From: a virus
Taxonomy: Duplodnaviria > Heunggongvirae > Uroviricota > Caudoviricetes
Direction: 5' to 3' (one strand)
Length of the DNA: 14,887 bases
Virus record (IMG/VR): IMGVR_UViG_2617270938_000003
The position numbers were made by a program, and so were the translations under genes. This document shows positions 1,917 to 14,887 of this stretch, piece by piece. The notes below the pieces were generated by a model. The model searched no databases and was not told the DNA's origin. It saw only the letters and a program-made list of their open reading frames with translations. Position 1 is the stretch's first letter. Every line of letters starts with the position of its first letter.

Positions 1917-2024
1917 AAATCAGCACGTACGAATTCAAACTCTGCCATAAAAGAACATATAAGTAATTTATTAACATATAGATATAGGTTATATTACAAA
2001 TTGAAAAATTATTGGAGAGCAACA

Positions 2025-2891
2025 ATGAATCAAAATCCATTCTCATTCTATGACTTTCTTGGATATTTAATACCAGGTGGTTTTTTTATCCTATTAATGT
2101 ATTTCTGTGGTTTGACATTCGATCTAGATATTGTTATTGACTTAAGTGAATTGCTCAGAGGTCAAAGTCAAATCTTTGGCATTTTGAACTACGCTTCAAT
2201 AGTTATTATATCTTATATAGCTGGACATTTTATTTCTATCACGTCAGCATTTTTTATCGAAAAATACATGAATAAAGAATTAGGATATCCTTCCAAATAT
2301 CTATTTAAAAAATTGATAGATACCTCAGAAAGCATTTGTAGCCCATCCTGCGATGAGAGAAGCGCTGATAAAAAAACAAAAATAAAGAATCGCATAATCA
2401 AATGCGTATTATGTCCAATAATACTATGGGATTTTATAACACAAAAACTATGTTATTCTCAATCTCTACCATTTCATTTAGCTAATACAACATGGTTAAT
2501 GATCAAAGAAGGTTATGAGAAAAAGTTCATAACAAATCGCCAATTATTACAAGATAAAAACGGACTTGATGATGATCTCTTCAGATTGGCATATCATTAT
2601 GTTTATGAGTTTTCAAAACAACATCAAACAAAAATTCAAAACTATGTTGCATTATATGGTTTTTGCAGAAACATATGTTTAATCTTTATAATTTCATTTT
2701 GGGTATCAGTTCCAACCTTTATTTATCGATTATGTACTCATAGTGATTATCTTTATAGTTTACTTTCAATAATGCTTAGCTTTTTCTTCGTCTATGTTTT
2801 CTATGTTGGTTTTGTTAAATTTTATAGAAGATATACTTTAGAAGTATTAATGGCATTTGCTGTACTTCAAAGTAACGACATTATTCGTTAA
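2025..2891 (+). CDS. AT-rich polytopic inner-membrane protein of unknown function (prophage moron candidate)
   Basis: ATG at 2025 with GGAGA 6 nt upstream; the track ORF starts at TTG 2001. About four to five hydrophobic helices (e.g. FFILLMYFCGL, IVIISYIAGHFISITSAFFI, ICLIFIISFWVSVPTFIY, LSIMLSFFFVYVFYVGFV) flank a charged central segment. Codon usage is markedly more AT-rich than the flanking yfdR-like and xis/int genes. Confidence 0.6.
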   Translation: MNQNPFSFYDFLGYLIPGGFFILLMYFCGLTFDLDIVIDLSELLRGQSQIFGILNYASIVIISYIAGHFISITSAFFIEKYMNKELGYPSKYLFKKLIDTSESICSPSCDERSADKKTKIKNRIIKCVLCPIILWDFITQKLCYSQSLPFHLANTTWLMIKEGYEKKFITNRQLLQDKNGLDDDLFRLAYHYVYEFSKQHQTKIQNYVALYGFCRNICLIFIISFWVSVPTFIYRLCTHSDYLYSLLSIMLSFFFVYVFYVGFVKFYRRYTLEVLMAFAVLQSNDIIR

Positions 2892-2932: not shown

Positions 2933-3139
2933 ATGCTGAACCTCGATTGTGTTCCTATCTCAACTTATTGCAAAGAAACTGGCGAAACTCCTGAAGCAAT
3001 AAACAAACGTGTACAGCGCGGTGTTTGGCGTGAAGGTGTTCAGGTTTTAAAGGTTGAAGGCGTTAAGGAGAGGTGGATTGATCTTAGTGAGGTTGCAAAA
3101 TGGGCCAGACAAAACTGCTCAAACTACCGCGCGGCGTAA
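2933..3139 (+). CDS. Putative excisionase / small DNA-binding recombination directionality factor
   Basis: Small basic ORF directly upstream of, and overlapping by 40 nt, a tyrosine integrase gene. ATG at 2933 has GGAGA 5 nt upstream; alternative starts at 2894 and 2921. The W/R-rich C-terminal half (RGVWREGVQVLKVEGVKERWIDLSEVAKWAR) looks like Xis-type winged-helix proteins. Assignment is from position and composition, not a confirmed match. Confidence 0.5.
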   Translation: MLNLDCVPISTYCKETGETPEAINKRVQRGVWREGVQVLKVEGVKERWIDLSEVAKWARQNCSNYRAA

Positions 3140-4272
3140 CAATCAGGAAACACCGCCAGGGAGAAACGATCAATATAACTTTCACCTACAAAGGAGTTAG
3201 ATGTCGTGAGCCGCTTTCCAATCTGGAAGTAACACCAAAGAACATTAAATACGCCGAGCGTACACTCGGCGAAATCCATAATAAGATCGAAAGGGGAACA
3301 TTCATTTATGCAGAATATTTTCCCCGTTCTGCTCGTTTGAAAATTTTTGGTAATGCTGCTGCAGGCAAAACGGTAAAGATGTACCTGGACGAATATCTTG
3401 AAATCTGCGAAACAAGAAAACTTTCACCCTCTACGATTGGTGGCTATAAAAAATGCCGTAGTGCGTTAGCCTCACTTCACATTTGCCCTGCAAGTGAATT
3501 AACACCAGCAACCCTGAAAGCGTGGATTCAAAGCCAGAAAACAACCTTAAAAACCATTCGCAACCAGTTATCTTTCCTACGGTCAGCACTTGATGAAGCC
3601 GTGACCGATGGGGTACTTCAAATTAACCCCGTATCGTTAGTAACAGCTTCGCGCTACCAAAGTGATAAGTCAGAAGCAGAAAGCAGCTATGTGGTTGATC
3701 CGCTATCACCAGCAGAAGTTGATGCATTACTAGCAGCAGCCGGAAACAAACAATGGGAAAATCTGTTCCGGTTCGCCATACATACAGGCCTGCGTAGTTC
3801 TGAATTATGTGCCCTACGATGGCATGATATCGACTTTGTTGGAAAAACAGCCCATGTTCAGAGCGCAAGTGTTGTCGGAGTTATCAAAGGAACAAAGACA
3901 AAAGCCGGTACCCGTAAAGTTGAACTGACTGAAGAAGCAATGTTGGCGTTGATAAACCAGAAGCCATTTACATTCATGAAGGATGCTACTGTCTTTGAAG
4001 ATCCAAAGACCAATAAACCCTGGGCAAGTGCTGATGCAATTAGGAAAAAAGCATGGGTGCCAACATTGCGAAAAGCAGGTATTCGTTACAGAAACCCATA
4101 TCAAACCAGGCATACATTCGCCCCCAGCCATATCAGCCGGGGAGCAAACCTGTTTTGGCTTGCGGCTCAAATGGGCCATAAAGGGCCTGAAATGTTATTC
4201 AGGCACTATGGACAATACTTGAAAGAGTATGATGGGAGGGCAAGTATCAAGGATAAAAAGGCTTTATTTTAA
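3100..4272 (+). CDS. Phage tyrosine integrase (site-specific recombinase, lambda-Int superfamily)
   Basis: 390-aa ORF with GAGG 8 nt upstream. C-terminal catalytic signature of tyrosine recombinases is present: TGLRSSEL (box I Arg), HxxR in NPYQTRHTFA, and the nucleophile region GHKGPEMLFRHYGQY. The N-terminus resembles arm-binding domains. Confidence 0.85.
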   Translation: MGQTKLLKLPRGVTIRKHRQGETINITFTYKGVRCREPLSNLEVTPKNIKYAERTLGEIHNKIERGTFIYAEYFPRSARLKIFGNAAAGKTVKMYLDEYLEICETRKLSPSTIGGYKKCRSALASLHICPASELTPATLKAWIQSQKTTLKTIRNQLSFLRSALDEAVTDGVLQINPVSLVTASRYQSDKSEAESSYVVDPLSPAEVDALLAAAGNKQWENLFRFAIHTGLRSSELCALRWHDIDFVGKTAHVQSASVVGVIKGTKTKAGTRKVELTEEAMLALINQKPFTFMKDATVFEDPKTNKPWASADAIRKKAWVPTLRKAGIRYRNPYQTRHTFAPSHISRGANLFWLAAQMGHKGPEMLFRHYGQYLKEYDGRASIKDKKALF

Positions 4273-4881
4273 GTCATTATGCCAATCGTCTACTGTTTGA
4301 AACCAAATTTTTAACCTTTGCATAAAGGTACGATCCTTTTTGGGAGGATGGTACCTTTGAAAAGAAGTATGTAACGCTTCGATAACTCCCATACAAGCAT
4401 CAATTACTTCTTGTGCTTTAACCGGGCGATCGGCATCTGAAAGCTTGTGAGCGACCTCACAATCCAGAGTTGCTTTCTCTAGTACAGATGAGAACACCTC
4501 GTCAGGTATATACAGTCCTCTGCTTTCCAAAATGCAAATCAGTTTGGAAACTTGTTGAGCTTTAGCCAAGATAGTTAACAAGTATGAAACAGAAGCCTTT
4601 GTTCTATCCTTTTGCAACCTTAACAATCGATGCTTTGATGCTCTAATTTTAGGTTGAGTTGTCTGACTGAGCCAATAGTTAGAAGAAATATCAGAAATTT
4701 CAATAACTAACTTTGAAATAGCATCAATAATTGATTTCGATTCAGAACGTGTCGCCAGTTTTACAGAATTATTGTACGCAACTCGCCATCCAATGAAAAC
4801 TAAGCAGACGCTAACTACTGTGATACACCACGAATACTGTCCTATTTGTGCTACTAATGACATTGGTTCCGTACTGATCAA
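4264..4881 (-). CDS. Single-pass membrane protein, third gene of a GHKL-ATPase/STAS-like operon
   Basis: One N-terminal transmembrane helix (YSWCITVVSVCLVFIGW) followed by a soluble domain of about 170 aa. Probable TTG start at 4881 with AAGAGG 6 nt upstream (ATG alternative at 4863). A 10-nt gap separates it from the upstream gene; its 3' end overlaps the integrase stop convergently. Confidence 0.55.
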   Translation of the reverse strand: MISTEPMSLVAQIGQYSWCITVVSVCLVFIGWRVAYNNSVKLATRSESKSIIDAISKLVIEISDISSNYWLSQTTQPKIRASKHRLLRLQKDRTKASVSYLLTILAKAQQVSKLICILESRGLYIPDEVFSSVLEKATLDCEVAHKLSDADRPVKAQEVIDACMGVIEALHTSFQRYHPPKKDRTFMQRLKIWFQTVDDWHNDLK

Positions 4882-4891
4882 CTATCGCCTC

Positions 4892-5218
4892 TTATACTCT
4901 TTCTGGTTGTGCTAAATCAATAAATTTATCAATCTGTTCTTTGTAGAACGGAACATCACTTTTTATAATCAAACGTGCTTTAACGTTGGCTTTAGGTATC
5001 CCTTCCTTACGGATGAGACCTCCAAACGCCTCTTCTAAGAAAGAGGAACCAACACCCAGTGCTATACCGCGAAAATCAACCACAATCTCCTGTTCAGTAC
5101 CCTTCAGCGCAGGCACCAAAAACTCTCTACGAAATCTTTCCGCACTGTGTGGGCTATCCGTTGTGTAACGTCCGAAAGGTGTTCTGGAGAACTCCTTCGC
5201 TATGACGATATTTCTCAT
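4892..5218 (-). CDS. Small STAS-like (anti-sigma-antagonist-like, DUF4325-type) protein
   Basis: 108-aa ORF; ATG at 5218 with AGGAGA 7 nt upstream, lying inside the end of the upstream GHKL gene. The motif VVDFRGIALGVGSSFLEEAFGGL resembles the STAS/DUF4325 core. Fold assignment is from motif resemblance only. Confidence 0.55.
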   Translation of the reverse strand: MRNIVIAKEFSRTPFGRYTTDSPHSAERFRREFLVPALKGTEQEIVVDFRGIALGVGSSFLEEAFGGLIRKEGIPKANVKARLIIKSDVPFYKEQIDKFIDLAQPERV

Positions 5219-5222
5219 AAAA

Positions 5223-6134
5223 TCATCTCCTGGGAACCAGCGACCATTGTAGTAAAGTACCCGGTATGTACTCAGCTAGCTTCTCACATCGAGGACTACT
5301 GTCATTAGAATTATAGCTATAACGAGCCCTTCCTGTTAGTATCAGAAGTGTCTCATTATCCTCACAACCTGCCCCAATAGGTCTCTTGATATCTTCAGAG
5401 CCATTTCCCCGTCCGGAACCAACAAAGCGGGATTCCCCTACTAACATAGCTCTTTCCACAGAAGATACTTCGTTTTGAATGCTATGACCATCACCATTAG
5501 GCACGAAACTTCTATAAATCCCCAATCCAAGGTCACAAACGATAAAAACGACTTTATTTTCATCACGATTGAACCAAGCGCACTGCCACCATCGTTTACC
5601 TTTGAGAAGCTGAATATCTGACTCGAACCCCTCATCTTCATACGCATGATGAGAAACATTGAGCAAAGCTTCACTAATCGCTGTCAGCAGTAAGCCTAAC
5701 TGTTCATTATTAAGCAGAGCACTTTTCTGCAGCATGAGTACTGTTTCAACAATATGCTCGTAAGGTTCGACAGCTGACTGAAAGTATCGTTCCTCCCTCG
5801 TAAGTGCATTCAGTTTCTCTTCTGTGCCAGCAAGCAAAGCACGAGCAAGTCCAGTACCAACGATCCATCTATGCCCAGATGGGTTATCATCCTTTTTAGG
5901 CCATTTAAAACGTATAAAATTAGGGTCCCGGGTTAAAAATTGAGCTCTATTTACTATGGCAAAGAACAGTACCGATGCCGCAGCTGAGGCAAATTTTACC
6001 TTGGACAAATCAACTATAACTCGACCTTTATTTTTTACTCCAATCGATTCAATCGAGTTGATGAAGTTCAATGTCCCAGCCCTAGAATCATCTGAGTAAA
6101 TGCAAAATTTGCTTGGGGGTACCAGTATGGTCAT
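5223..6134 (-). CDS. GHKL-superfamily (HATPase_c) ATPase/kinase-like protein with N-terminal extension
   Basis: 303-aa ORF. All three Bergerat-fold motifs were read directly from the minus strand: N-box EALLNVSHHAY (5640-5672), G1 box DLGLG (5520-5534) and G2 box GSGRGNG (5400-5420). Residues 40-56 (VDLSKVKFASAAASVLF) resemble the STAS phospho-acceptor region. No strong SD at the ATG. Confidence 0.7.
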   Translation of the reverse strand: MTILVPPSKFCIYSDDSRAGTLNFINSIESIGVKNKGRVIVDLSKVKFASAAASVLFFAIVNRAQFLTRDPNFIRFKWPKKDDNPSGHRWIVGTGLARALLAGTEEKLNALTREERYFQSAVEPYEHIVETVLMLQKSALLNNEQLGLLLTAISEALLNVSHHAYEDEGFESDIQLLKGKRWWQCAWFNRDENKVVFIVCDLGLGIYRSFVPNGDGHSIQNEVSSVERAMLVGESRFVGSGRGNGSEDIKRPIGAGCEDNETLLILTGRARYSYNSNDSSPRCEKLAEYIPGTLLQWSLVPRR

Positions 6135-6286
6135 AGCGATGTCATTCTTATACGATGGATTTATAGATTATCTACTATTCATAGTTGGTTATGAAGACTG
6201 GGATATAACAGTAAAAGATACGTGTAAGATCCGCAAGATAGTTAATGTCGAAAAAAATCATTAATTACATCAAGTTAGTGATATTT

Positions 6287-6318
6287 GGACTCGGGTTCAA
6301 CTCCCGCCAGCTCCACCA
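6287..6318 (+). other. att core: copy of the 3' end of tmRNA (ssrA) without the rest of the gene
   Basis: GGACTCGGGTTCAACTCCCGCCAGCTCCACCA. The last 27 nt are identical to the 3' end (T-arm, acceptor stem, CCA) of E. coli tmRNA as I recall it; similarity decays upstream. The ~345 nt of tmRNA that should precede it are absent, since that space is intergenic and a protein-coding gene. Confidence 0.75.
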
Positions 6319-6352
6319 AATATTGATGTACTGAAGTTCAGTAAAGTCTACT

Positions 6353-6387
6353 AAGCCCGCACAGCACAAGCTCTGCGGGCTTTTTTA
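6353..6387 (+). terminator. Rho-independent terminator downstream of the tmRNA 3'-end copy
   Basis: Stem AAGCCCGCA / TGCGGGCTT (9 bp) with a 12-nt loop, immediately followed by TTTTTT at 6381-6386. Confidence 0.6.
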
Positions 6388-6484
6388 CGTCTATTGTAGT
6401 CTAGTGAGAATTGCTGAGAACTACGAGTTATGGCACCCTGAATGGGACCCACGAAGATGGGTCCTAAAATCGAGGGTCCCAAAC

Positions 6485-7714
6485 ATGGCCAAAATCGCTA
6501 AGAAGCTCACTGACACTGAAATCAAAAGCACCAAACCTGCCGAAAAAGAGGTTAACCTTTTTGACGGCGATGGTTTGCTGTTGCGAATCGCTCCCCTGGC
6601 GAAGGGAGGGAAGAAAAATTGGTATTTCAGATATGCAGTGCCTGTGACCAAAAAGCGAACTAAGGTGAGCTTAGGAACCTATCCTCACCTTACACTTGCG
6701 AAGGCACGAGCTTTACGTGATGAATACTTGTCGTTGCTTACAAATGGTATAGACCCCCAAGTTCATAACAACCAAAAAGCCAATGCACTGAAAGATGCCA
6801 CGGAACATACATTTCAAGCAGTAGCCAAGAAGTGGCTTGATGAGAAAGTCAAAACGTCAGGCATCTCCCAAGATCATGCTAACGACATCTGGCGAAGCCT
6901 AGAGAGAAATATCTTTTCCACATTGGGTGATACCCCAATTAAGGAGATTCGCCCTAAAATGCTTAAACAGCATTTAGAACCCATAGAAAAACGAGGTGTC
7001 CTTGAAACACTTCGCCGCATCATATCCCGCCTGAATGAAATTTTCCGCTATGCAGCAACAGAAGAACTCATAGAATTCAACCCGGCAGACAACCTGGGGC
7101 AACGGTTCAGCAAGCCAAAAAAACAGAATATGCCAGCATTACCCCCTTCCGAACTCCCTCGCTTCTTGGTTGCTCTAAACAATGCTTCTATCCGTTTGGA
7201 AACAAGGCTACTGATTGAGTGGCAACTTCTCACATGGGTTCGCCCAGGTGAAGCTGTTCGCACAAGATGGTCAGATATTGATATTGAAACTGGCATGTGG
7301 AACATCCCGGCGGAGTTTATGAAAATGAAGAAGCCTCACAAAGTTCCACTGAGCAAAGAAGCTTTGCGAGTTTTGGATTTAATGAAAGTCATCAGCGGGC
7401 ATAGAGAGTGGGTGTTCCCCAGTATCAAAGCTCCACTCAATCACATGCATGAACAAACAGCTAATGCGGCCATAATCCGTATGGGTTTCGGAGGTGAGCT
7501 TGTAGCTCACGGTATGCGATCCATTGCTAGAACGGCTGCTGAGGAGTCTGGCAAGTTTAGGACTGATGTCTTAGAAGCCGCCCTTGCCCACTCGAAGAAA
7601 GATGAAATAATTGCAGCCTACAATCGTGCAGAGTATCTCACTGAACGGGTGGTTCTCATGCAATGGTGGAGTGACTATGTTTCGTCTCAAAAATGCAAAG
7701 TTATTGCCGCATAA
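6485..7714 (+). CDS. intA: P4-type tyrosine integrase, IntA-like (CP4-57 family), tmRNA-associated
   Basis: From ATG 6485 (GAGGG upstream) the protein MAKIAKKLTDTEIKSTKP...NLFDGDGLLLRIAP...WYFRY...TKKRTKVSLGTYP aligns along its length with E. coli IntA as recalled (LTDTEIK, DGDGL, DIWRSLER, ALETLRR, KKNMP, MQWW). It sits immediately 3' of an ssrA 3'-end sequence as in E. coli. The track ORF starts at GTG 6404. Confidence 0.85.
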   Translation: MAKIAKKLTDTEIKSTKPAEKEVNLFDGDGLLLRIAPLAKGGKKNWYFRYAVPVTKKRTKVSLGTYPHLTLAKARALRDEYLSLLTNGIDPQVHNNQKANALKDATEHTFQAVAKKWLDEKVKTSGISQDHANDIWRSLERNIFSTLGDTPIKEIRPKMLKQHLEPIEKRGVLETLRRIISRLNEIFRYAATEELIEFNPADNLGQRFSKPKKQNMPALPPSELPRFLVALNNASIRLETRLLIEWQLLTWVRPGEAVRTRWSDIDIETGMWNIPAEFMKMKKPHKVPLSKEALRVLDLMKVISGHREWVFPSIKAPLNHMHEQTANAAIIRMGFGGELVAHGMRSIARTAAEESGKFRTDVLEAALAHSKKDEIIAAYNRAEYLTERVVLMQWWSDYVSSQKCKVIAA

Positions 7715-7776
7715 CTCTCCCATGATGGATTAACTATCTTGATTTAGTTAAAGAATTAATAATCACACCATTAACC

Positions 7777-7826
7777 TATGTGGACTAAGCATAGCCATTT
7801 ACAAATGGGGACATTGAGTCCACATA
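7777..7826. repeat. 50-bp two-fold symmetric site (nested inverted repeats around a central AC dinucleotide)
   Basis: TATGTGGACT-aagcatag-CCATTT-AC-AAATGG-ggacattg-AGTCCACATA. Outer 10-bp arms are perfect reverse complements, as are the inner 6-bp arms; both share the same centre (7801/7802). It lies in the intA / serine-recombinase intergenic region, about 170 bp upstream of the recombinase start. Confidence 0.6.
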
Positions 7827-7996
7827 ACGAAAGCTGTCGGTCATATCAGCTAAATAATTCACATCTCTTCTCGATTATCATACACCTCGAAGATCTACCA
7901 AATTCGCTCTAATCAATGATAAAACAGTTGAATTCGGTTAAAATTTGATCAATTTTATCCTCTACATTGTATTGAATCACCCATGAGGTTTCGTGC

Positions 7997-9553
7997 ATGG
8001 CTAGCGAAAATGACAAAAATCATAGAGTTAGGGTCGCGCAGTACTTGAGGATGTCTACCGACCATCAGCAATATTCTTTACATAATCAGTCCGAATATAT
8101 CAAAGATTATGCTGAAAAGAACAATATGGAAATCGCTTATACCTACGATGATGCAGGTAAGAGCGGAGTCAGTATCGTAGGCAGGCATTCTTTGCAGCAG
8201 TTACTTAGCGATGTAGAACAAAAGAAAATAGATATACAGGCTGTATTATTTTATGATGTGAGCCGTTTTGGTCGTTTTCAAAATAGTGATGAAGCGGCAT
8301 ATTATTCCTTTCTATTTGAGAGAAATGGTGTAGATCTTATATATTGTTCCGAACCTATACCCACTAAAGATTTCCCTTTAGAGTCCTCTGTTATACTGAA
8401 TATAAAAAGATCTAGTGCTGCATATCACAGCAGGAATTTATCTGAAAAGGTATTTATAGGGCAAGTAAATTTAATAAAGCTTGGTTATCATCAAGGCGGT
8501 ATGGCTGGTTATGGGCTGAGACGTCTTTTAGTAGACGAAAATGGCATAGCTAAAGAAATATTGAGTTTCCGCAAAAGAAAGAGTATTCAAACAGATAGGG
8601 TAATATTAATTCCGGGACCAAAAAATGAAATAAAAATTGTAAATAGAATATATGATCTCTTTATAGATAATAACGTCCCAGAATTCATTATTGCTGAGAG
8701 ATTAAATGAACAGAACATACCTGCAGAAAATGGAACATTATGGACTCGTGCAAAAATACATCAAATTTTGACAAATGAAAAATATATTGGAAACAACATA
8801 TATAACAAAACCTCATCTAAATTAAAAAGTAGGCTTGTAAAAAACCCCAAACATGAATGGGTTAGATGTGACAAGGCATATAAACCTATTATTTCAAAGA
8901 AAAAATACAATAAAGCTCAAGAAATAATTCAGCTCCGATCCATTCATTTGACTAATGAAGATCTATTAGAAAAACTAAAACAAAAATTAGAATCTAATGG
9001 AAAACTATCAGGCTTTATCATTGATGAAGATGATACAGGCCCTTCATCTTCTGTTTATAGAACCCGATTTGGTGGTCTTTTAAGAGCATATACTTTGATT
9101 GGTTATAAGCCAGAACATGATTACAGCTATCTCAAAATAAATGAAGCACTAAGATCATTTCACTCAGAGATAATTGAGGATTTTAAGGGTGAAATTTTAA
9201 AAAGTAACTGTCATATAGACGAGTATAAATATGCCCCAATGCTTTACATCAATGATGAGTTTTTAATTTCCATCCTTGTTACTAAATGCATACATATGAA
9301 ATCAGGTAAACTTAGATGGAAAGTCCGGTTTGATAACTCACAGAAAGCAGACATAACAATTGTTATACGAATGAATTCACAAAATATTTCACCTCTTGAT
9401 TTTTATATCATACCAAAGATTGAAAACGAATATAATAAAATGTGTATGACGGAAACAAACAACATTCGATTAGATCTCTATAGATTTGATAATCTTGATA
9501 AACTTCTACAAATTATTACTCGCATGAAAGTGAGGGAACTATATGCTGCCTGA
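7997..9553 (+). CDS. Large serine recombinase (resolvase/invertase catalytic domain plus recombinase domain)
   Basis: N-terminus RVAQYLRMSTDHQ matches the serine-recombinase active-site motif (YxRxSTxxQ, nucleophile about Ser20, codon near 8054). Resolvase-like block ...DDAGKSGVSIVGRHSLQQLL...VLFYDVSRFGR and recombinase-domain-like block GYHQGGMAGYGLRR...LWTRAKIHQILTNEKYIGN follow. No classical CxxC zinc-ribbon seen in the C-terminal third. GAGG 8 nt upstream of ATG; very AT-rich. Confidence 0.8.
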   Translation: MASENDKNHRVRVAQYLRMSTDHQQYSLHNQSEYIKDYAEKNNMEIAYTYDDAGKSGVSIVGRHSLQQLLSDVEQKKIDIQAVLFYDVSRFGRFQNSDEAAYYSFLFERNGVDLIYCSEPIPTKDFPLESSVILNIKRSSAAYHSRNLSEKVFIGQVNLIKLGYHQGGMAGYGLRRLLVDENGIAKEILSFRKRKSIQTDRVILIPGPKNEIKIVNRIYDLFIDNNVPEFIIAERLNEQNIPAENGTLWTRAKIHQILTNEKYIGNNIYNKTSSKLKSRLVKNPKHEWVRCDKAYKPIISKKKYNKAQEIIQLRSIHLTNEDLLEKLKQKLESNGKLSGFIIDEDDTGPSSSVYRTRFGGLLRAYTLIGYKPEHDYSYLKINEALRSFHSEIIEDFKGEILKSNCHIDEYKYAPMLYINDEFLISILVTKCIHMKSGKLRWKVRFDNSQKADITIVIRMNSQNISPLDFYIIPKIENEYNKMCMTETNNIRLDLYRFDNLDKLLQIITRMKVRELYAA

Positions 9554-10439
9554 AAAAAATGAATTCCCAATAATTCAAATTGAGATTGCAAAAATAAAAT
9601 TTCTTAACCCACGAACAAGAAATAAGTTAGTGCATGAAGAAATAAAGGAAAGCATAAAAAAAAGAGGATTAAGCAAGCCTATAAGCGTAAGAGCTATTGA
9701 TGAAGGCGATTTCAAATATGCTTTAATTTGTGGTCAAGGGAGAATAGAGGCTCTCGTTGCATTAGGTGAAACTATTATTCCAGCAATTATAAGAGATGTA
9801 TCAGAAGAAGATGCTTACGTTATGAGTTTAGTTGAAAACATTGCAAGGAGAAGACCACGTTCTAATGAGTTATTACAGGTGATTAAAGACATGAAAATCA
9901 GAGGACTTTCAGACTCCGAAATAAGTGAGATTACTGGATATTCATCGAACTGGGTGAGCAGTATTAATATGCTACTTGATAAGGGAGAGCATAAACTTCT
10001 CTCAGCAGTCGAACGGGGTAATTTGCCTCTGTATCTCGCAGTGCAATTTGCAAGATGTGAAACTGAGGAAGCACAAGATATTCTTACCGAAGCATATGAT
10101 AAAAAATTAATAAAAAGTCGGGACATTATAAAGATAAAACACATTCTAAATCAAAGAACAGTTGGGAATAAAGGTGCAAAAGCAGCCGGATTTTATTATC
10201 ACAAACCATCAAAAAGGATGACTGCAGAGGAGTTGATTGAGCTTTATGAAAATAGTATCGCTGAACATAAATCTGTTTATAACAACTCAAAATTCATAAA
10301 AACCAACCTACTAATAGTAAATGAGATTTTTAACATCATAATGATGAATAAAAGCTTTCAACATATACTTGAACAAGAGAATCTTTCAGAACTACCATCT
10401 CAGATATTAACCCCAGTAAACAAAGAGGTATTAAAATGA
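9543..10439 (+). CDS. ParB/Srx-fold protein with HTH (ParB-like N-terminal domain), 298 aa
   Basis: Collinear with the chromosomal ParB N-terminal domain: ...NPR..., GQGRIEA at 9732-9752 (ParB GERRxRA-type arginine motif), IPAIIRDVSEEDAYVMSLVENIARR (ParB box ENLQR-like), then an HTH-like LSDSEISEITGYSSNWVSS. Start overlaps the recombinase stop by 11 nt, with GAGGGA 6 nt upstream. Confidence 0.75.
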   Translation: MLPEKNEFPIIQIEIAKIKFLNPRTRNKLVHEEIKESIKKRGLSKPISVRAIDEGDFKYALICGQGRIEALVALGETIIPAIIRDVSEEDAYVMSLVENIARRRPRSNELLQVIKDMKIRGLSDSEISEITGYSSNWVSSINMLLDKGEHKLLSAVERGNLPLYLAVQFARCETEEAQDILTEAYDKKLIKSRDIIKIKHILNQRTVGNKGAKAAGFYYHKPSKRMTAEELIELYENSIAEHKSVYNNSKFIKTNLLIVNEIFNIIMMNKSFQHILEQENLSELPSQILTPVNKEVLK

Positions 10440-11332
10440 TTCAGATACGTTTTGGCGATAATTTTATTTACCTGGAAACTAATAAGTTAATTCCATCTAA
10501 GGAATTATTAGAAAACGTAAAGCGAAGCCATAAATATCATCAAATAGTTACCTCTATCGAAAGCTTAGGTATTATTGAACCAATAATAGTATTCTATGAC
10601 AAAGATAAAGATGTCACTAAGATACTTGATGGCCATTTAAGGGTTGAGGCTTTAAAAGACTTAGGTATAGAAAAAGCTCCATGTATACTTTCGAGCATAG
10701 ATGATGCTTTCACTCCTAACAAACAAGTGAATCATATAAATGTAGTTGAAGAACATAGAATGATAATTAAGTCTCTGGCAAAAGTATCAATTGAAAAACT
10801 TAGTGCTGCTTTGGGCATATCTGTTGATGCCATAAAAGATAAAGCGAATGTGATGAACGGCATAGATCCAAGTGTAATTGCGAAACTTTCTGATAAACCT
10901 ATACCTAAGGCTACATTTGACGTTTTGAGGAAAATGAAGCCAATTCGCCAAATTGAAGCAGTCGGTACAATGATTAATTTTGATAATTATAGTAAAAAAT
11001 TTGCAATGAGCATCTTGGATGCAACACCGGCATCGATGATAGTAAATAAAGGGAAAAACACTCCCTATAAAAAGGATATAAAAAAAACCATACTTCGTCT
11101 GGAACAAGAAATGGCAACAACTTCGGAAGAAACGAAAAAGCTTCAAACCGAGTATGGTTCAGATATGTTGAAATTCGTTATAATCCAGTCATATATTAAT
11201 AAATTACTTGGCAATTCTAAAGTTCTTCATTGGTTCTTAGAAAACGAGGTTGATTATCTTAATGAGTTAAAAAGAATTTCTAGAATAAATTCTTTGGATG
11301 ATAAGACTCTTACTGAAAACAGCAAGTCATAG
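10436..11332 (+). CDS. Second ParB/Srx-fold protein, divergent paralogue-like, 298 aa
   Basis: N-terminal segment IIEPIIVFYDKDKDVTKILDGHLRVEALKDLGIEKAPCIL (DGHLRVEA at 10628-10651) has the ParB/Srx arrangement of a beta-strand, Gly/Arg motif and hydrophobic helix. ATGA start/stop overlap with the upstream gene, AGAGG SD. Same length as its neighbour. Confidence 0.6.
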   Translation: MIQIRFGDNFIYLETNKLIPSKELLENVKRSHKYHQIVTSIESLGIIEPIIVFYDKDKDVTKILDGHLRVEALKDLGIEKAPCILSSIDDAFTPNKQVNHINVVEEHRMIIKSLAKVSIEKLSAALGISVDAIKDKANVMNGIDPSVIAKLSDKPIPKATFDVLRKMKPIRQIEAVGTMINFDNYSKKFAMSILDATPASMIVNKGKNTPYKKDIKKTILRLEQEMATTSEETKKLQTEYGSDMLKFVIIQSYINKLLGNSKVLHWFLENEVDYLNELKRISRINSLDDKTLTENSKS

Positions 11333-12560: not shown

Positions 12561-12767
12561 TTAGACTGCATCCAGCAGATCATCTACGTACACATAATCC
12601 CGCTTGAACGTCTTTACAAACGATTCTGCCATGCCGTTACTTCCCGGACTGCGTACTGGTGTAGTACACACGATGAACCACAGTGAACTAGCGAATGTGC
12701 GCGTGGCATCGGCTGTGCAGCAATTATGCCAATGACACTGGCTCCATTGACGGCAATGACCTGACAT
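12561..12767 (-). pseudogene. Remnant of an IS3-family (IS2-group) transposase orfB
   Basis: Translation ...TRTFASSLWFIVCTTPVRSPGSNGMAESFVKTFKRDYV matches the DDE-glutamate region of IS2 InsD (...[38 protein letters not shown]...) as recalled. The reading frame is only 68 codons, with neither the N-terminal catalytic region nor the normal C-terminus intact. Confidence 0.6.
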
Positions 12768-12927: not shown

Positions 12928-14475
12928 ATGGCCAGAAAACCTAAAGAAATCAAAACAGACCCGTTAGAGGTCATCCTGTGGAAAGCGGCTGACAAGCTAC
13001 GTAAGAACATTGATGCAGCCGAGTACAAGCATGTCGTGCTGGGCCTGATTTTCCTTAAGTATATTTCTGATTCTTTTGAATCTCATTATGAGTTGCTGAA
13101 GGCTGGTGAAGGCGAGTTCGCAGGCGCTGACCCGGAAGATAGAGACGAGTACACCGCTTACAACATTTTCTTTGTCCCTGAGCTTGCACGCTGGAACTAT
13201 CTAATATCTAAGGCAAAGCTACCCGAAATCGGTAAGCTGGTTGATGATGCTATGGAGCTTATCGAAGCGGGTAACCCACAGCTAAAAGGTGCGCTGCCGA
13301 AAGTCTACGCTCGCCAGAACCTCGACGCAACTGTGCTGGGTGAACTGATAGATCTGATTGGCAACATTGCACTGGGAGATGCCAAAGCGCGTTCTGCTGA
13401 TGTATTAGGCCACGTATTCGAATACTTCCTTGGTGAATTTGCACTGGCAGAAGGCAAACAGGGCGGTCAGTTCTATACGCCAAAATCCATCGTAAGCCTG
13501 CTGGTTAACATGCTGGAACCCTATAAAGGCCGAGTCTTTGACCCTTGCTGCGGTTCCGGTGGTATGTTCGTTCAGTCAGAAAAATTTGTTGAAGCGCATC
13601 AGGGAAATATTGACGATATTTCGATTTACGGTCAGGAATCCAACCAGACCACCTGGCGTCTGGCAAAAATGAACCTGGCTATCCGGGGTATCAATTCAGA
13701 ACACGTCCGCTGGAACAGTGAAGGCTCATTCCTTAACGATGCCCACAAAGATCTAAAATCTGATTTTATCATTGCCAATCCACCGTTTAACGTGTCTGAC
13801 TGGTCCGGTGAGCAGCTTCGTGGCGATGCCCGTTGGCAATACGGTATCCCACCTACCGGGAATGCTAACTTTGCCTGGATGCAGCATTTTCTGTATCACC
13901 TGTCGCCAAAAGGTCAGGCTGGTGTTGTACTGGCAAAAGGGGCTTTAACATCTAAAAGTTCTGGTGAAGGTGATATCCGTGCCGCACTGGTAAAAGATGC
14001 CAATGTGATTGACTGTATCGTAAATTTACCTGCAAAACTGTTCCTGAACACCCAGATCCCTGCGGCGTTATGGTTTATGCGTCGTGATCGTGAAAATAGC
14101 AGCCAATATCGTGATCGCAGTAAAGAAATTCTGTTTATTGATGCCCGGAATTTAGGCCATTTAATTAATCGTCGAACCAAAGTCCTGTCTGACTACGATA
14201 TTAAAACCATAGCCGATACCTACCATAACTGGCGTAACAAAGGTGGCGACTACGAAGACGTCGCTGGTTTCTGTGCGTCAGTAGACATTGCTGAAGTTGC
14301 TAAACTCGATTATGTGCTGACACCTGGCCGTTATGTTGGTCTTGCTGATGAAGAAGACGATTTCGACTTTAAAGAACGCTTTACGGCTCTTAAAGCTGAG
14401 TTTGAAGCGCAACTGGAAGAAGAGGCGCGTCTGAACAGAGCCATCGTTGATAATCTGGCGAAGGTGGTTTTATGA
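12928..14475 (+). CDS. hsdM: Type I restriction-modification system DNA methyltransferase subunit HsdM
   Basis: 515-aa ORF with the N6-adenine methyltransferase motifs: AdoMet-binding motif [13 protein letters not shown] and catalytic motif IV NPPF ([12 protein letters not shown]). Typical HsdM N-terminal helical region and acidic coiled C-terminus; stop overlaps the next gene's ATG (ATGA). Confidence 0.9.
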
Positions 14476-14518: not shown

Positions 14519-14887
14519 GGTAATGACTCCAACTTATTGATAGTGTTTTATGTTCAGATAATGCCCGATGACTTTGTCATGCAGCTCCACCGATTTTGAG
14601 AACGACAGCGACTTCCGTCCCAGCCGTGCCAGGTGCTGCCTCAGATTCAGGTTATGCCGCTCAATTCGCTGCGTATATCGCTTGCTGATTACGTGCAGCT
14701 TTCCCTTCAGGCGGGATTCATACAGCGGCCAGCCATCCGTCATCCATATCACCACGTCAAAGGGTGACAGCAGGCTCATAAGACGCCCCAGCGTCGCCAT
14801 AGTGCGCTCACCGAATACGTGCGCAACAACCGTCTTCCGGAGACTGTCATACGCGTAAAACAGCCAGCGCTGGCGCGATTTAGCCCC
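14519..14887 (-). mobile_element. IS1 insertion sequence (partial; continues beyond window end)
   Basis: Begins with the characteristic IS1 terminal sequence GGTAATGACTCCAACTTATTGATAGTGTTTTATGTTCAGATAATG. The following DNA is the reverse complement of the insB end of IS1; the encoded protein ends ...[23 protein letters not shown], as in IS1 InsB. Confidence 0.9.
14534..14887 (-). CDS. insB: IS1 transposase InsB / InsAB' C-terminal portion (5' part lies beyond the window)
   Basis: Minus-strand frame encodes ...[88 protein letters not shown]. The frame stays open upstream to the window edge. Confidence 0.85.

Follow-up and report, generated by a model that had tools for sequence, protein, structure and literature searches.

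What is the function of three small genes packed between the integrase and the attachment site of an Escherichia coli prophage, and do they belong to a known kind of bacterial immune system? The question arises from a stretch of 14,887 nucleotides (Caudoviricetes, IMG/VR record IMGVR_UViG_2617270938_000003), the whole of which is called the window below, and in which three tightly packed minus-strand ORFs, here A, B and C, occupy positions 4264-6134. In an initial annotation of the window, these ORFs had been read as a GHKL ATPase, a STAS-like protein and a single-pass membrane protein, and proposed as a candidate for an undescribed phage-defence or abortive-infection module.

Gene organisation and place in the prophage

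The cassette spans 1,871 bp, and its genes are separated by 4 nt (A/B) and 10 nt (B/C); the ORFs gave the same coordinates and gaps as had been annotated, and the three protein calls proved correct by Pfam, alignments and hydropathy. An AGGAGA motif lies within the 3′ end of A, 5′ of the ATG of B, and an AAGAGG motif covers the stop codon of B and the start of the 10-nt gap, 6 nt ahead of the TTG of C. The start of C is placed at this TTG (position 4881) by the ORF call and at an ATG at position 4863 by RefSeq. At the other end of the cassette, C and the integrase gene overlap convergently by 9 nt. In homologous cassettes, the genes overlap instead of being separated by the 4-nt and 10-nt gaps.

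Table 1. Positions of the genes, domains, motifs and flanking elements in the window.
Feature	Positions	Strand	Basis and remarks
Prophage tyrosine integrase	3100..4272	+	ORF and annotation; convergent with C, stops overlap
Gene C, 205-aa single-pass membrane protein with predicted cytoplasmic four-helix bundle, WP_000060412.1	4264..4881	-	ORF call, TTG start
C juxtamembrane motif, residues 31-49, GWRVAYNNSVKLATRSESK	4735..4791	-	Most conserved stretch of C; A or B may dock here
C predicted transmembrane helix, residues 17-35	4777..4833	-	Highest-scoring hydropathy window (19 residues, 1.81)
Gene B, 108-aa single-domain STAS-like protein, family DUF4325, WP_001244589.1	4892..5218	-	ORF call; Pfam DUF4325 E 6e-14; next after A in every locus examined
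B GSSF motif, residues 57-60, candidate phospho-acceptors S58 and S59	5039..5050	-	In all 13 aligned B proteins
Gene A, 303-aa STAS-GHKL protein, putative serine kinase, WP_000154254.1	5223..6134	-	ORF call
A GHKL (Bergerat-fold) ATP-binding domain, residues 124-303	5226..5765	-	N box E155/N159; G1 box D201-x-G-x-G205; G2 box R242-G243-x-G245; G292
A STAS-like alpha/beta domain, residues 1-121	5772..6134	-	A51 at SpoIIAA phospho-serine position
AT-rich region 5′ of the cassette, one sigma-70-like match at 6195-6167	6135..6286	-	Consensus scan
attR core, copy of ssrA (tmRNA) 3′ end	6287..6318	+	Sequence read; partial tmRNA match

A lambdoid prophage that integrates at ssrA carries the cassette as accessory cargo. 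The sequence at 6287-6318, GGACTCGGGTTCAACTCCCGCCAGCTCCACCA, is the 3′ end of tmRNA/ssrA and is included in a partial Rfam match to tmRNA (6192-6318, E 9e-7); beyond it lie the ssrA terminator and a P4-type integrase. The att core that had been annotated at 6287 is therefore real, and the same core is also found 5′ of A in three Salmonella loci (L002, L004 and L005). In four Salmonella loci and 15 of the 38 IMG/VR proviral contigs, C is directly followed by a homologous integrase in convergent orientation. In the Salmonella loci, the integrase flank is constant and the opposite flank variable, and in other E. coli strains the same integrase-att slot is occupied by PD-Lambda-5 or by another gene; both patterns agree with the earlier reading of the genes as cargo between integrase and att site. 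The integrase was detected in 419 E. coli genomes, the cassette in only about 131. PD-Lambda-5, which occupies the integrase-to-attR(ssrA) slot in the sister prophage of E. coli MY1-8 (subunit B match, E 1e-123), is reportedly a defence system validated by Vassallo et al. in 2022 and is modelled in PADLOC-DB; its proteins, an AAA_15 ATPase and a D12 adenine methyltransferase, are unrelated to A, B and C. A promoter in the region 5′ of A is not established, since sigma-70 consensus matches are no more numerous in 6135-6286 than in shuffled sequence. Some copies of the cassette adjoin core genes with no integrase detected nearby, for example a Colwellia copy that follows gcvP and the copy in locus L028 that follows rplU-rpmA. 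In one E. coli genome, evidently viable, an IS3 element is inserted within the cassette.

The order A-B-C was found in all 65 related loci long enough for checking (all 18 genome loci, all 9 from distant relatives and all 38 proviral contigs), and it holds even in relatives with A at 25-30% identity. The co-occurrence test suggested in the initial annotation thus came out in favour of a conserved three-gene cassette. This cassette is under purifying selection according to dN/dS, which was 0.03-0.22 in 6/9 comparisons with unsaturated dS; A and B gave a ratio in more than one comparison, C in a single one, with the Salmonella-type homologue L048.

Properties of the three proteins

Protein A joins a STAS domain to a GHKL domain of the SpoIIAB/RsbW type, whose ATP site is intact. 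Across an alignment of 43 sequences, there is no variation at E155, N159, D201, G203, R242, G243, G245 or G292, and 39 of the sequences have G205. The score of A against HATPase_c_2 was 22.9 bits, under the Pfam cut-off of 27.4, and among solved structures, the anti-sigma serine kinases SpoIIAB and RsbW are closest to it in fold. Nothing usable was obtained for A from NCBIfam, where the only match was to RsbW, with 11.7 bits against a cut-off of 145. Within the STAS-like domain, alanine A51 is invariant across the close family of A, at the position where SpoIIAA has its phospho-serine. The A profile matched up to about 2,300 protein clusters; by tblastn, no match to A was found in 50,697 phage genome records, and a single one (30% identity, Pasteurella) was found in plasmids. 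An ordinary sensor histidine kinase was rejected as an identity for A, as Pfam detected no HisKA domain and no response regulator is encoded nearby. Hence, the housekeeping sensor kinase that the initial annotation had named as a possible refutation did not materialise. A is the only enzyme of the cassette.

The most conserved gene of the three is B, whose product consists entirely of the DUF4325 domain. The GSSF motif is kept even in the distant Colwellia and Teredinibacter loci. In the alignment, S58 of B stands opposite S48 of VapS, and S59 opposite S54 of CapS, the phospho-sites of these two proteins being taken as given in PMC13373217. Judged from its sequence, B belongs to the DUF4325 STAS proteins and has invariant serines at the presumptive phospho-acceptor position. 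A sequence search of a PDB copy with A, B and C returned nothing meaningful, and the VapS-VapC entry 9Z7O was not among the matches of B.

A single hydrophobic helix is present in protein C, with about 170 residues beyond it. No K/R residue precedes the helix, and the next 20 residues contain 4 K/R against 1 D/E, a distribution which, by the positive-inside rule, predicts an N-terminus outside and a C-terminus inside. The structural model consists of the transmembrane helix and a generic four-helix bundle, so that C is predicted to be a single-pass inner-membrane protein. No Pfam family matched C, and no known toxin or pore fold was recognised in the model. Residues G31, W32, V34, Y36, N38 and L42-K49 are invariant in 24 homologues, and a core GW...N..K.A.R.E is kept even in the most distant members; this juxtamembrane segment (residues 31-49) is a likely candidate for the contact with A or B. 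Divergence is much faster in the bundle than in A or B: between locus L032 and the window, A and B are 87% identical and the C bundle 43%. Three further readings of C were discarded. An enzymatic role was considered from its TLDCE and HPP motifs, which are lost in distant members; the stretch ATRSESKS is not a universal phospho-acceptor, as relatives have N, A or T in place of S46; and C is not a swappable effector, a protein of the C family following B in every locus, the most distant included.

Relation to known kinase-STAS systems

The closest counterpart in the literature is VapKSC, an anti-phage operon of a kinase, a DUF4325 protein and a PIN toxin (Chambers, Rani, Min, Villa, Corbett, EMBO J 2026, PMC13373217). 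VapKSC stops only Bas42; VapS is antitoxin-like and VapC toxin-like, the third protein being the output of the system (PMC13373217). Like the cassette, VapKSC has three genes in the same order and of similar sizes, encoding first a STAS-GHKL kinase (about 300 aa), next a STAS partner of the DUF4325 family (about 110 aa) and last a third protein. In both VapK and A, a STAS domain precedes a GHKL domain within about 300 aa, and there is no HTH. The match between them was marginal (BLASTP E 0.06; 16.9 bits with the A-family HMM), and profile-profile comparison of the two families gave a collinear alignment of 248 columns with an E value of 1e-4 at an hhalign probability of only 56%. Similarly, B and VapS are both DUF4325 STAS proteins with a conserved serine phospho-site (candidate in B), their sequence relation being remote. 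However, the C-terminal helix of VapS (residues 94-116), which blocks the active site of VapC, is absent from B, and in the alignment B and its homologues stop where this extension starts. Besides, the third gene of VapKSC encodes a PIN nuclease, whereas C is a single-pass membrane protein with a predicted helical bundle, and VapKSC protects against Bas42 whereas the cassette has no demonstrated phenotype. In A, an aromatic residue aligns with F54 of VapK, a putative ssDNA-binding residue; 25 of 40 close relatives have F or Y there, and across the wider family the position is not conserved. The cue sensed by A may differ from that of VapK. Altogether, the cassette looks like a variant of the recently described VapKSC-type switch, with a membrane output. 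The earlier statement that no named system matches is outdated, since VapKSC shares the three-gene arrangement and also has a DUF4325 protein as partner.

CapK-CapS, a regulator pair of immune operons, is also similar to the cassette, with a GHKL kinase containing an internal STAS domain and a STAS substrate with a conserved SSF serine (PMC13373217). However, CapK has 368 aa and an N-terminal HTH, whereas A starts directly at the STAS-like domain. CapS has a winged-helix DNA-binding domain that B lacks; therefore, B cannot be a CapS-type repressor. Membership of A in the CapK clade was rejected, the A-family HMM giving CapK just 1.4 bits. With SpoIIAB and RsbW, A shares the GHKL serine-kinase fold and the N, G1 and G2 boxes but, unlike them, carries its own STAS domain. 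Moreover, the SpoIIAB-SpoIIAA and RsbW-RsbV pairs have a sigma factor as partner, whereas the third component of the cassette is a membrane protein. Neither the cassette nor the annotation within 12 kb of it contains a sigma factor, and no phosphatase is annotated within that distance; PP2C phosphatases are absent from the annotation of the 26-kb region and from the Pfam lists of related loci. The PADLOC comparison recommended by the initial annotation came back empty, no family of PADLOC-DB 2.0.0 matching A, B or C at E<=1. Main texts searched for DUF4325 or for the accessions of A, B and C contained nothing relevant; a domain-centric defence paper (NAR 2026) and a paper on Vibrio WASA were of no relevance to the cassette.

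Proposed switch and alternative explanations

The cassette had been taken as unnoticed in the initial annotation, but it is already listed as candidate VPUS in Table S6 of the DefensePredictor study (Science 2026, PMC13092281): the protein accessions are identical and the 1,871-bp span is the same. There, VPUS was predicted to be defensive (log-odds 5.75, category “structural defense homolog”), yet when carried with its native promoter region on the low-copy plasmid pCV1 in MG1655, it was not defensive against 24 phages; it did not validate and received no DS name (PMC13092281). In the portions of the text searched, no mechanistic discussion of VPUS was found. The cloned-operon experiment that the initial annotation had called for is thus partly in print. 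Its negative outcome counts against a role in defence without disproving it; no mention of Bas42 was found in the panel and supplementary files, where Lambda is the only temperate-type phage noticed (PMC13092281). The cassette illustrates the limits of such screens, being conserved, located in a proven defence slot and predicted to be defensive, yet silent on a standard panel.

From sequence considerations, A quite probably phosphorylates B. It is an even call, in our judgement, whether the cassette as a whole is a three-part phospho-switch of the VapKSC kind with a role in conflict and with C as output, its function being unproven. In such a switch, A would sense a cue and phosphorylate B at S58 or S59; phosphorylated B would then change its binding partner, by which C would be freed or activated. 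At the membrane, C could cause growth arrest or block an incoming or competing phage, i.e., abortive infection or superinfection exclusion. Its juxtamembrane motif would be the likely point of contact with A or B, and the fast-diverging bundle would be the part facing the arms race. If this model is true, the GHKL-kinase/STAS phospho-switch of CapKS and VapKSC is a reusable sensor that can drive a membrane output besides a repressor or an RNase; the idea of a modular bacterial immunity would be extended, with DUF4325 as a general phospho-regulated adaptor. More doubtful is the broader proposal that the triad represents a widespread family of uncharacterised immune or exclusion systems, in which a SpoIIAB-like kinase and a DUF4325 partner would control a membrane protein whose bundle senses or resists phage factors, and in which the negative 24-phage screen would reflect a narrow specificity (temperate or Bas42-like phages, native-host context).

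The same three proteins could instead form a phospho-relay serving the prophage or the host, for example in lysogeny, induction, lysis timing or, through C, envelope stress. This is unlikely in our view, although the lack of protection by VPUS against the 24 phages in the published screen, the absence of PADLOC models for A, B and C and the copies that adjoin core genes with no integrase detected nearby are all in line with it, and Chambers et al. call the boundary between immunity and stress responses blurred (PMC13373217). A core role in the life cycle is argued against by the presence of the cassette in only about one third of otherwise near-identical prophages; the slot shared with PD-Lambda-5, the fast divergence of the C bundle and the machine-learning prediction also speak for defence rather than for such a relay.

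Distinctly unlikely is a scheme in which the kinase itself is the effector: A would act on host or phage proteins, B would restrain it as a pseudo-substrate or antagonist, and C would anchor the pair at the membrane or sense DNA entry. Being the sole enzyme, A would suit this role, as would a C protein without toxin-like fold whose best-conserved part is a short juxtamembrane segment fit for docking. Classic partner switching offers a precedent, the kinase SpoIIAB doubling as an inhibitor that binds its output protein, sigma F. However, the substrate of SpoIIAB/RsbW-type kinases is their STAS partner and not a broad range of proteins, and a mere anchor is not expected to diversify as the bundle of C does. 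The third protein is, besides, the output of VapKSC (PMC13373217). Very improbable, finally, is an addiction module of toxin-antitoxin style, in which C would be the toxin and B the antitoxin; such a module would stabilise the prophage or island and affect phages only incidentally. VapS and VapC do act as antitoxin and toxin (PMC13373217), the genes are tightly coupled (by short gaps here, by overlaps in homologues), and the cassette is carried on mobile elements. Nevertheless, a simple module needs no ATP-dependent kinase, which the family keeps invariant, and the E. coli genome with IS3 inside the cassette is evidently viable. Carriers of the cassette include extraintestinal pathogenic E. 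coli lineages (for instance UTI89, IHE3034, NU14 and APEC O18), in which any effect on phage susceptibility or on the prophage would bear on phage therapy.

Organization and conservation of the cassette

The three minus-strand ORFs, namely A (STAS-GHKL protein, putative serine kinase), B (DUF4325 STAS-like protein, E 6e-14) and C (single-pass membrane protein with a cytoplasmic four-helix bundle), lie exactly where the initial annotation had placed them, and the intergenic gaps of 4 and 10 nt as well as the 9-nt overlap between the stop of C and the convergent integrase were recovered. Ribosome-binding sites had been located within the preceding gene. This holds for AGGAGA, within the 3' end of A, and only partly for AAGAGG, which straddles the stop codon of B and runs into the 10-nt gap, 6 nt upstream of the TTG of C. 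The RefSeq start of C is an ATG at 4863.

Coordinates of the features in the window
Feature	Position	Strand	Description
Second variable slot ORF	2001-2891	+	296 aa; 29-31% GC vs about 45% around
Integrase	3100-4272		convergent with C
C	4264-4881	-	205 aa ORF, TTG start
Bundle of C	4264-4663		residues 73-205
Integrase-attR slot	4273-6286		
B	4892-5218	-	108 aa ORF
A	5223-6134	-	303 aa ORF
ssrA-end region	6287-6386	+	ssrA-end copy and terminator
ssrA island	6404-11332	+	30-36% GC
P4-type integrase	6404-7714		
Short ORF	12561-12767	-	presumed transposase remnant
HsdM-like ORF	12928-14475	+	putative methylase
Short ORF	14534-14800	-	presumed transposase remnant

A, B and C are one conserved unit. 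A homologue of A followed directly by B and a C homologue was found in 18 of 18 genome loci of sufficient length (Salmonella, Citrobacter, Budvicia, Rouxiella, Serratia, Photobacterium, Rheinheimera, an Oceanospirillaceae MAG, Colwellia and Teredinibacter), and the same order was observed in all 38 IMG/VR proviral contigs and in nine metagenome loci whose A proteins are far more remote, bearing out the co-occurrence of the three genes in other genomes. In these distant loci, the third protein (156-173 aa where not truncated by the contig end) retains the N-terminal helix ending in GW and matches the C-family HMM with E from 2e-33 to 1e-3 where scored. Hence, C is a fixed third component; a swappable effector was rejected, since a C homologue came third in every locus checked. 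An exhaustive profile search with A returned 2,338 cluster representatives at E<=1e-3, with end-to-end alignments for the majority of the top 150. The GSSF(L)EE-FGG motif was present in 13/13 aligned B proteins. The dN/dS ratio was 0.03-0.22 wherever dS was computable, i.e., in more than one comparison for A and B and in one only for C.

Divergence is far faster in the bundle of C than in A, in B or in the membrane-proximal part of C (related loci L032-L039). This is illustrated by L032, in which identity with the window is 87% for A, 87% for B, 70% for membrane-proximal C and 43% for the bundle. Besides, identity in the list of C homologues drops from 90% straight to 53%, whereas the A list is continuous. 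Judged from sequence, such fast divergence fits a conflict role and may stem from diversifying selection or from allele swapping; dS is saturated in these comparisons. The conserved portion of C is the juxtamembrane motif GW..Y.N..KLATRSESK, which makes it a natural candidate site of contact with A or B.

Attachment site and cargo hotspot

The att core proposed at 6287 is real: GGACTCGGGTTCAACTCCCGCCAGCTCCACCA is the terminal 32 nt of ssrA (tmRNA). The ssrA terminator comes next, then a P4-type integrase, and ARAGORN detected no complete tRNA or tmRNA gene in the window. This site thus marks the right junction of an ssrA-inserted prophage, where the 3' end of the gene has been displaced, and a second ssrA island stands in tandem with this prophage. 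This separate island encodes the P4-type integrase, a 518-aa large serine recombinase and two consecutive ParB_N/RepB-like proteins. The terminator behind the ssrA-end copy resembles the 3' end of the IsrM sRNA model of Rfam (E 1.5e-11) at a score far below the gathering score; instead of an IsrM gene, this match probably indicates a terminator common to regions downstream of ssrA.

The sequence originates from E. coli. Of 5,426 complete genomes, 131 (UTI89, IHE3034, NU14 and APEC O18 among them) carry the cassette with at least 99% identity, in every case on the chromosome; its host element is a lambdoid prophage with yfdP, yfdQ and yfdR homologues, at the end of which it is located. In E. 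coli FDAARGOS_1303 (NZ_CP070045.1), an IS3-family transposase within the cassette region splits the match to window 4264-6300 in two, disruption being therefore evidently compatible with viability.

The cargo position assigned by the initial annotation between integrase and att core was also retrieved in Salmonella loci, where the integrase flank is constant, the other flank is variable (P4-type integrase, P2-like phage, 1,526-aa gene, or csiD) and 3/4 loci have the ssrA core upstream of A. Hence, the cassette belongs to the prophage, between integrase and attR. A homologous integrase was convergent directly after C in 15/38 proviral contigs, and the cassette lay <300 bp from the provirus end in 14/38. 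The integrase occurs in 419 E. coli genomes, with 92-100% identity that ends about 40 nt short of its stop, and the cassette in only about 131. In sister prophages, the same slot holds a 259-aa protein without family match (ST131 strain 4993, L020 7215-7994) or PD-Lambda-5 (strain MY1-8, L021 7226-9938; subunit B match E 1e-123, plus an AAA_15 ATPase). This slot thus acts as a hotspot for interchangeable cargo and, in one sister prophage, harbours a validated defence system. In Rheinheimera (L006 1676-7725), two NERD-domain and two DUF1240 genes precede the cassette in what may be a small defence island; no integrase was detected nearby.

Kinase-STAS relatives and putative function

VapKSC is a three-gene operon encoding VapK (STAS+GHKL, 302 aa), VapS (STAS, 116 aa, phosphorylated on S48) and the PIN toxin VapC, which is neutralised by VapS and not by phosphomimetic VapS; the operon confers about 2-log protection against phage Bas42. 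CapK is an ssDNA-activated HTH-STAS-GHKL kinase, and the STAS-wHTH repressor CapS is phosphorylated on S54 in the same study (Chambers et al., EMBO J 2026, PMC13373217). Using the sequences from its supplementary files, VapS was, like B, a DUF4325 protein (E 2.7e-17), S58 of B aligned with S48 of VapS, and S59 with S54 of CapS. The A- and VapK-family profiles are collinear over 248 columns including the N-terminal domain, at only E 1e-4 and probability 56%. The A-family HMM scored VapK at 16.9 bits and CapK at 1.4 bits, so that A and B form a distinct, remotely related lineage of the same architecture. In contrast to VapKSC, the third gene encodes a membrane protein instead of a PIN nuclease, B is devoid of the C-terminal inhibitory helix of VapS, and the position of VapK F54 (putative ssDNA-binding) is aromatic in only 25/40 close relatives of A and not conserved beyond them. 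Membership of VapKSC or CapKS was rejected, since defining features of each were looked for and are absent from the cassette.

The cassette is already flagged in the literature as an unvalidated defence candidate. Indeed, entry VPUS of DefensePredictor Table S6 lists WP_000060412.1, WP_001244589.1 and WP_000154254.1 (maximum log-odds 5.75, category 'Structural defense homolog', defensive = FALSE, no DS name), and MG1655 pCV1-VPUS appears in the strain list (Science 2026, PMC13092281). These accessions are the RefSeq ones of C, B and A, respectively, and the 1,871-bp span is that of the cassette. Transcription units, together with the predicted native promoter region, were carried on the low-copy plasmid pCV1 and challenged with 24 phages, 42 of 94 being validated; according to the authors, non-validated systems may require other phages, another host or other boundaries (PMC13092281). 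The phage resistance expected from the operon cloned with its native promoter was thus not observed in MG1655 with these 24 phages. Lambda was the sole temperate-type phage seen among the listed phages, and no mention of Bas42 was found in the supplementary files (PMC13092281). The 'pBAD' column of Table S6 is TRUE for VPUS and almost every row, the methods describe only three units in pBAD and Table S11 gives pCV1-VPUS; this label seems inverted or of other meaning.

The folds, motifs, conserved gene order and mobile-element hotspot are established, and by analogy the cassette is most suitably classed as a GHKL-kinase/STAS phospho-switch conflict module of putative function. As in SpoIIAB-SpoIIAA, CapK-CapS and VapK-VapS, A would phosphorylate B on S58 or S59, and the phosphorylation state of B would control C, presumably the only possible output component besides kinase A itself. 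The negative 24-phage screen, the lack of any toxin-like feature in C and of any phosphatase annotated within 12 kb of the cassette count against this switch. The defence module envisaged initially is partly supported, in that the conserved unit in a cargo hotspot and the bundle divergence fit it, and the negative screen and the lack of toxin-like features in C do not.

Other features of the window

The 296-aa ORF, with several hydrophobic stretches, lies between yfdR and the integrase in a second variable slot, which contains different small genes in strain 4993. Pfam gave no match for this ORF, and PADLOC a weak one only, to Csx27 (E 1.4e-5). From its motifs, we take the HsdM-like ORF to be a putative type I restriction-modification methylase; the short ORFs flanking it are presumably transposase remnants, one of them putatively IS1 InsB-like.
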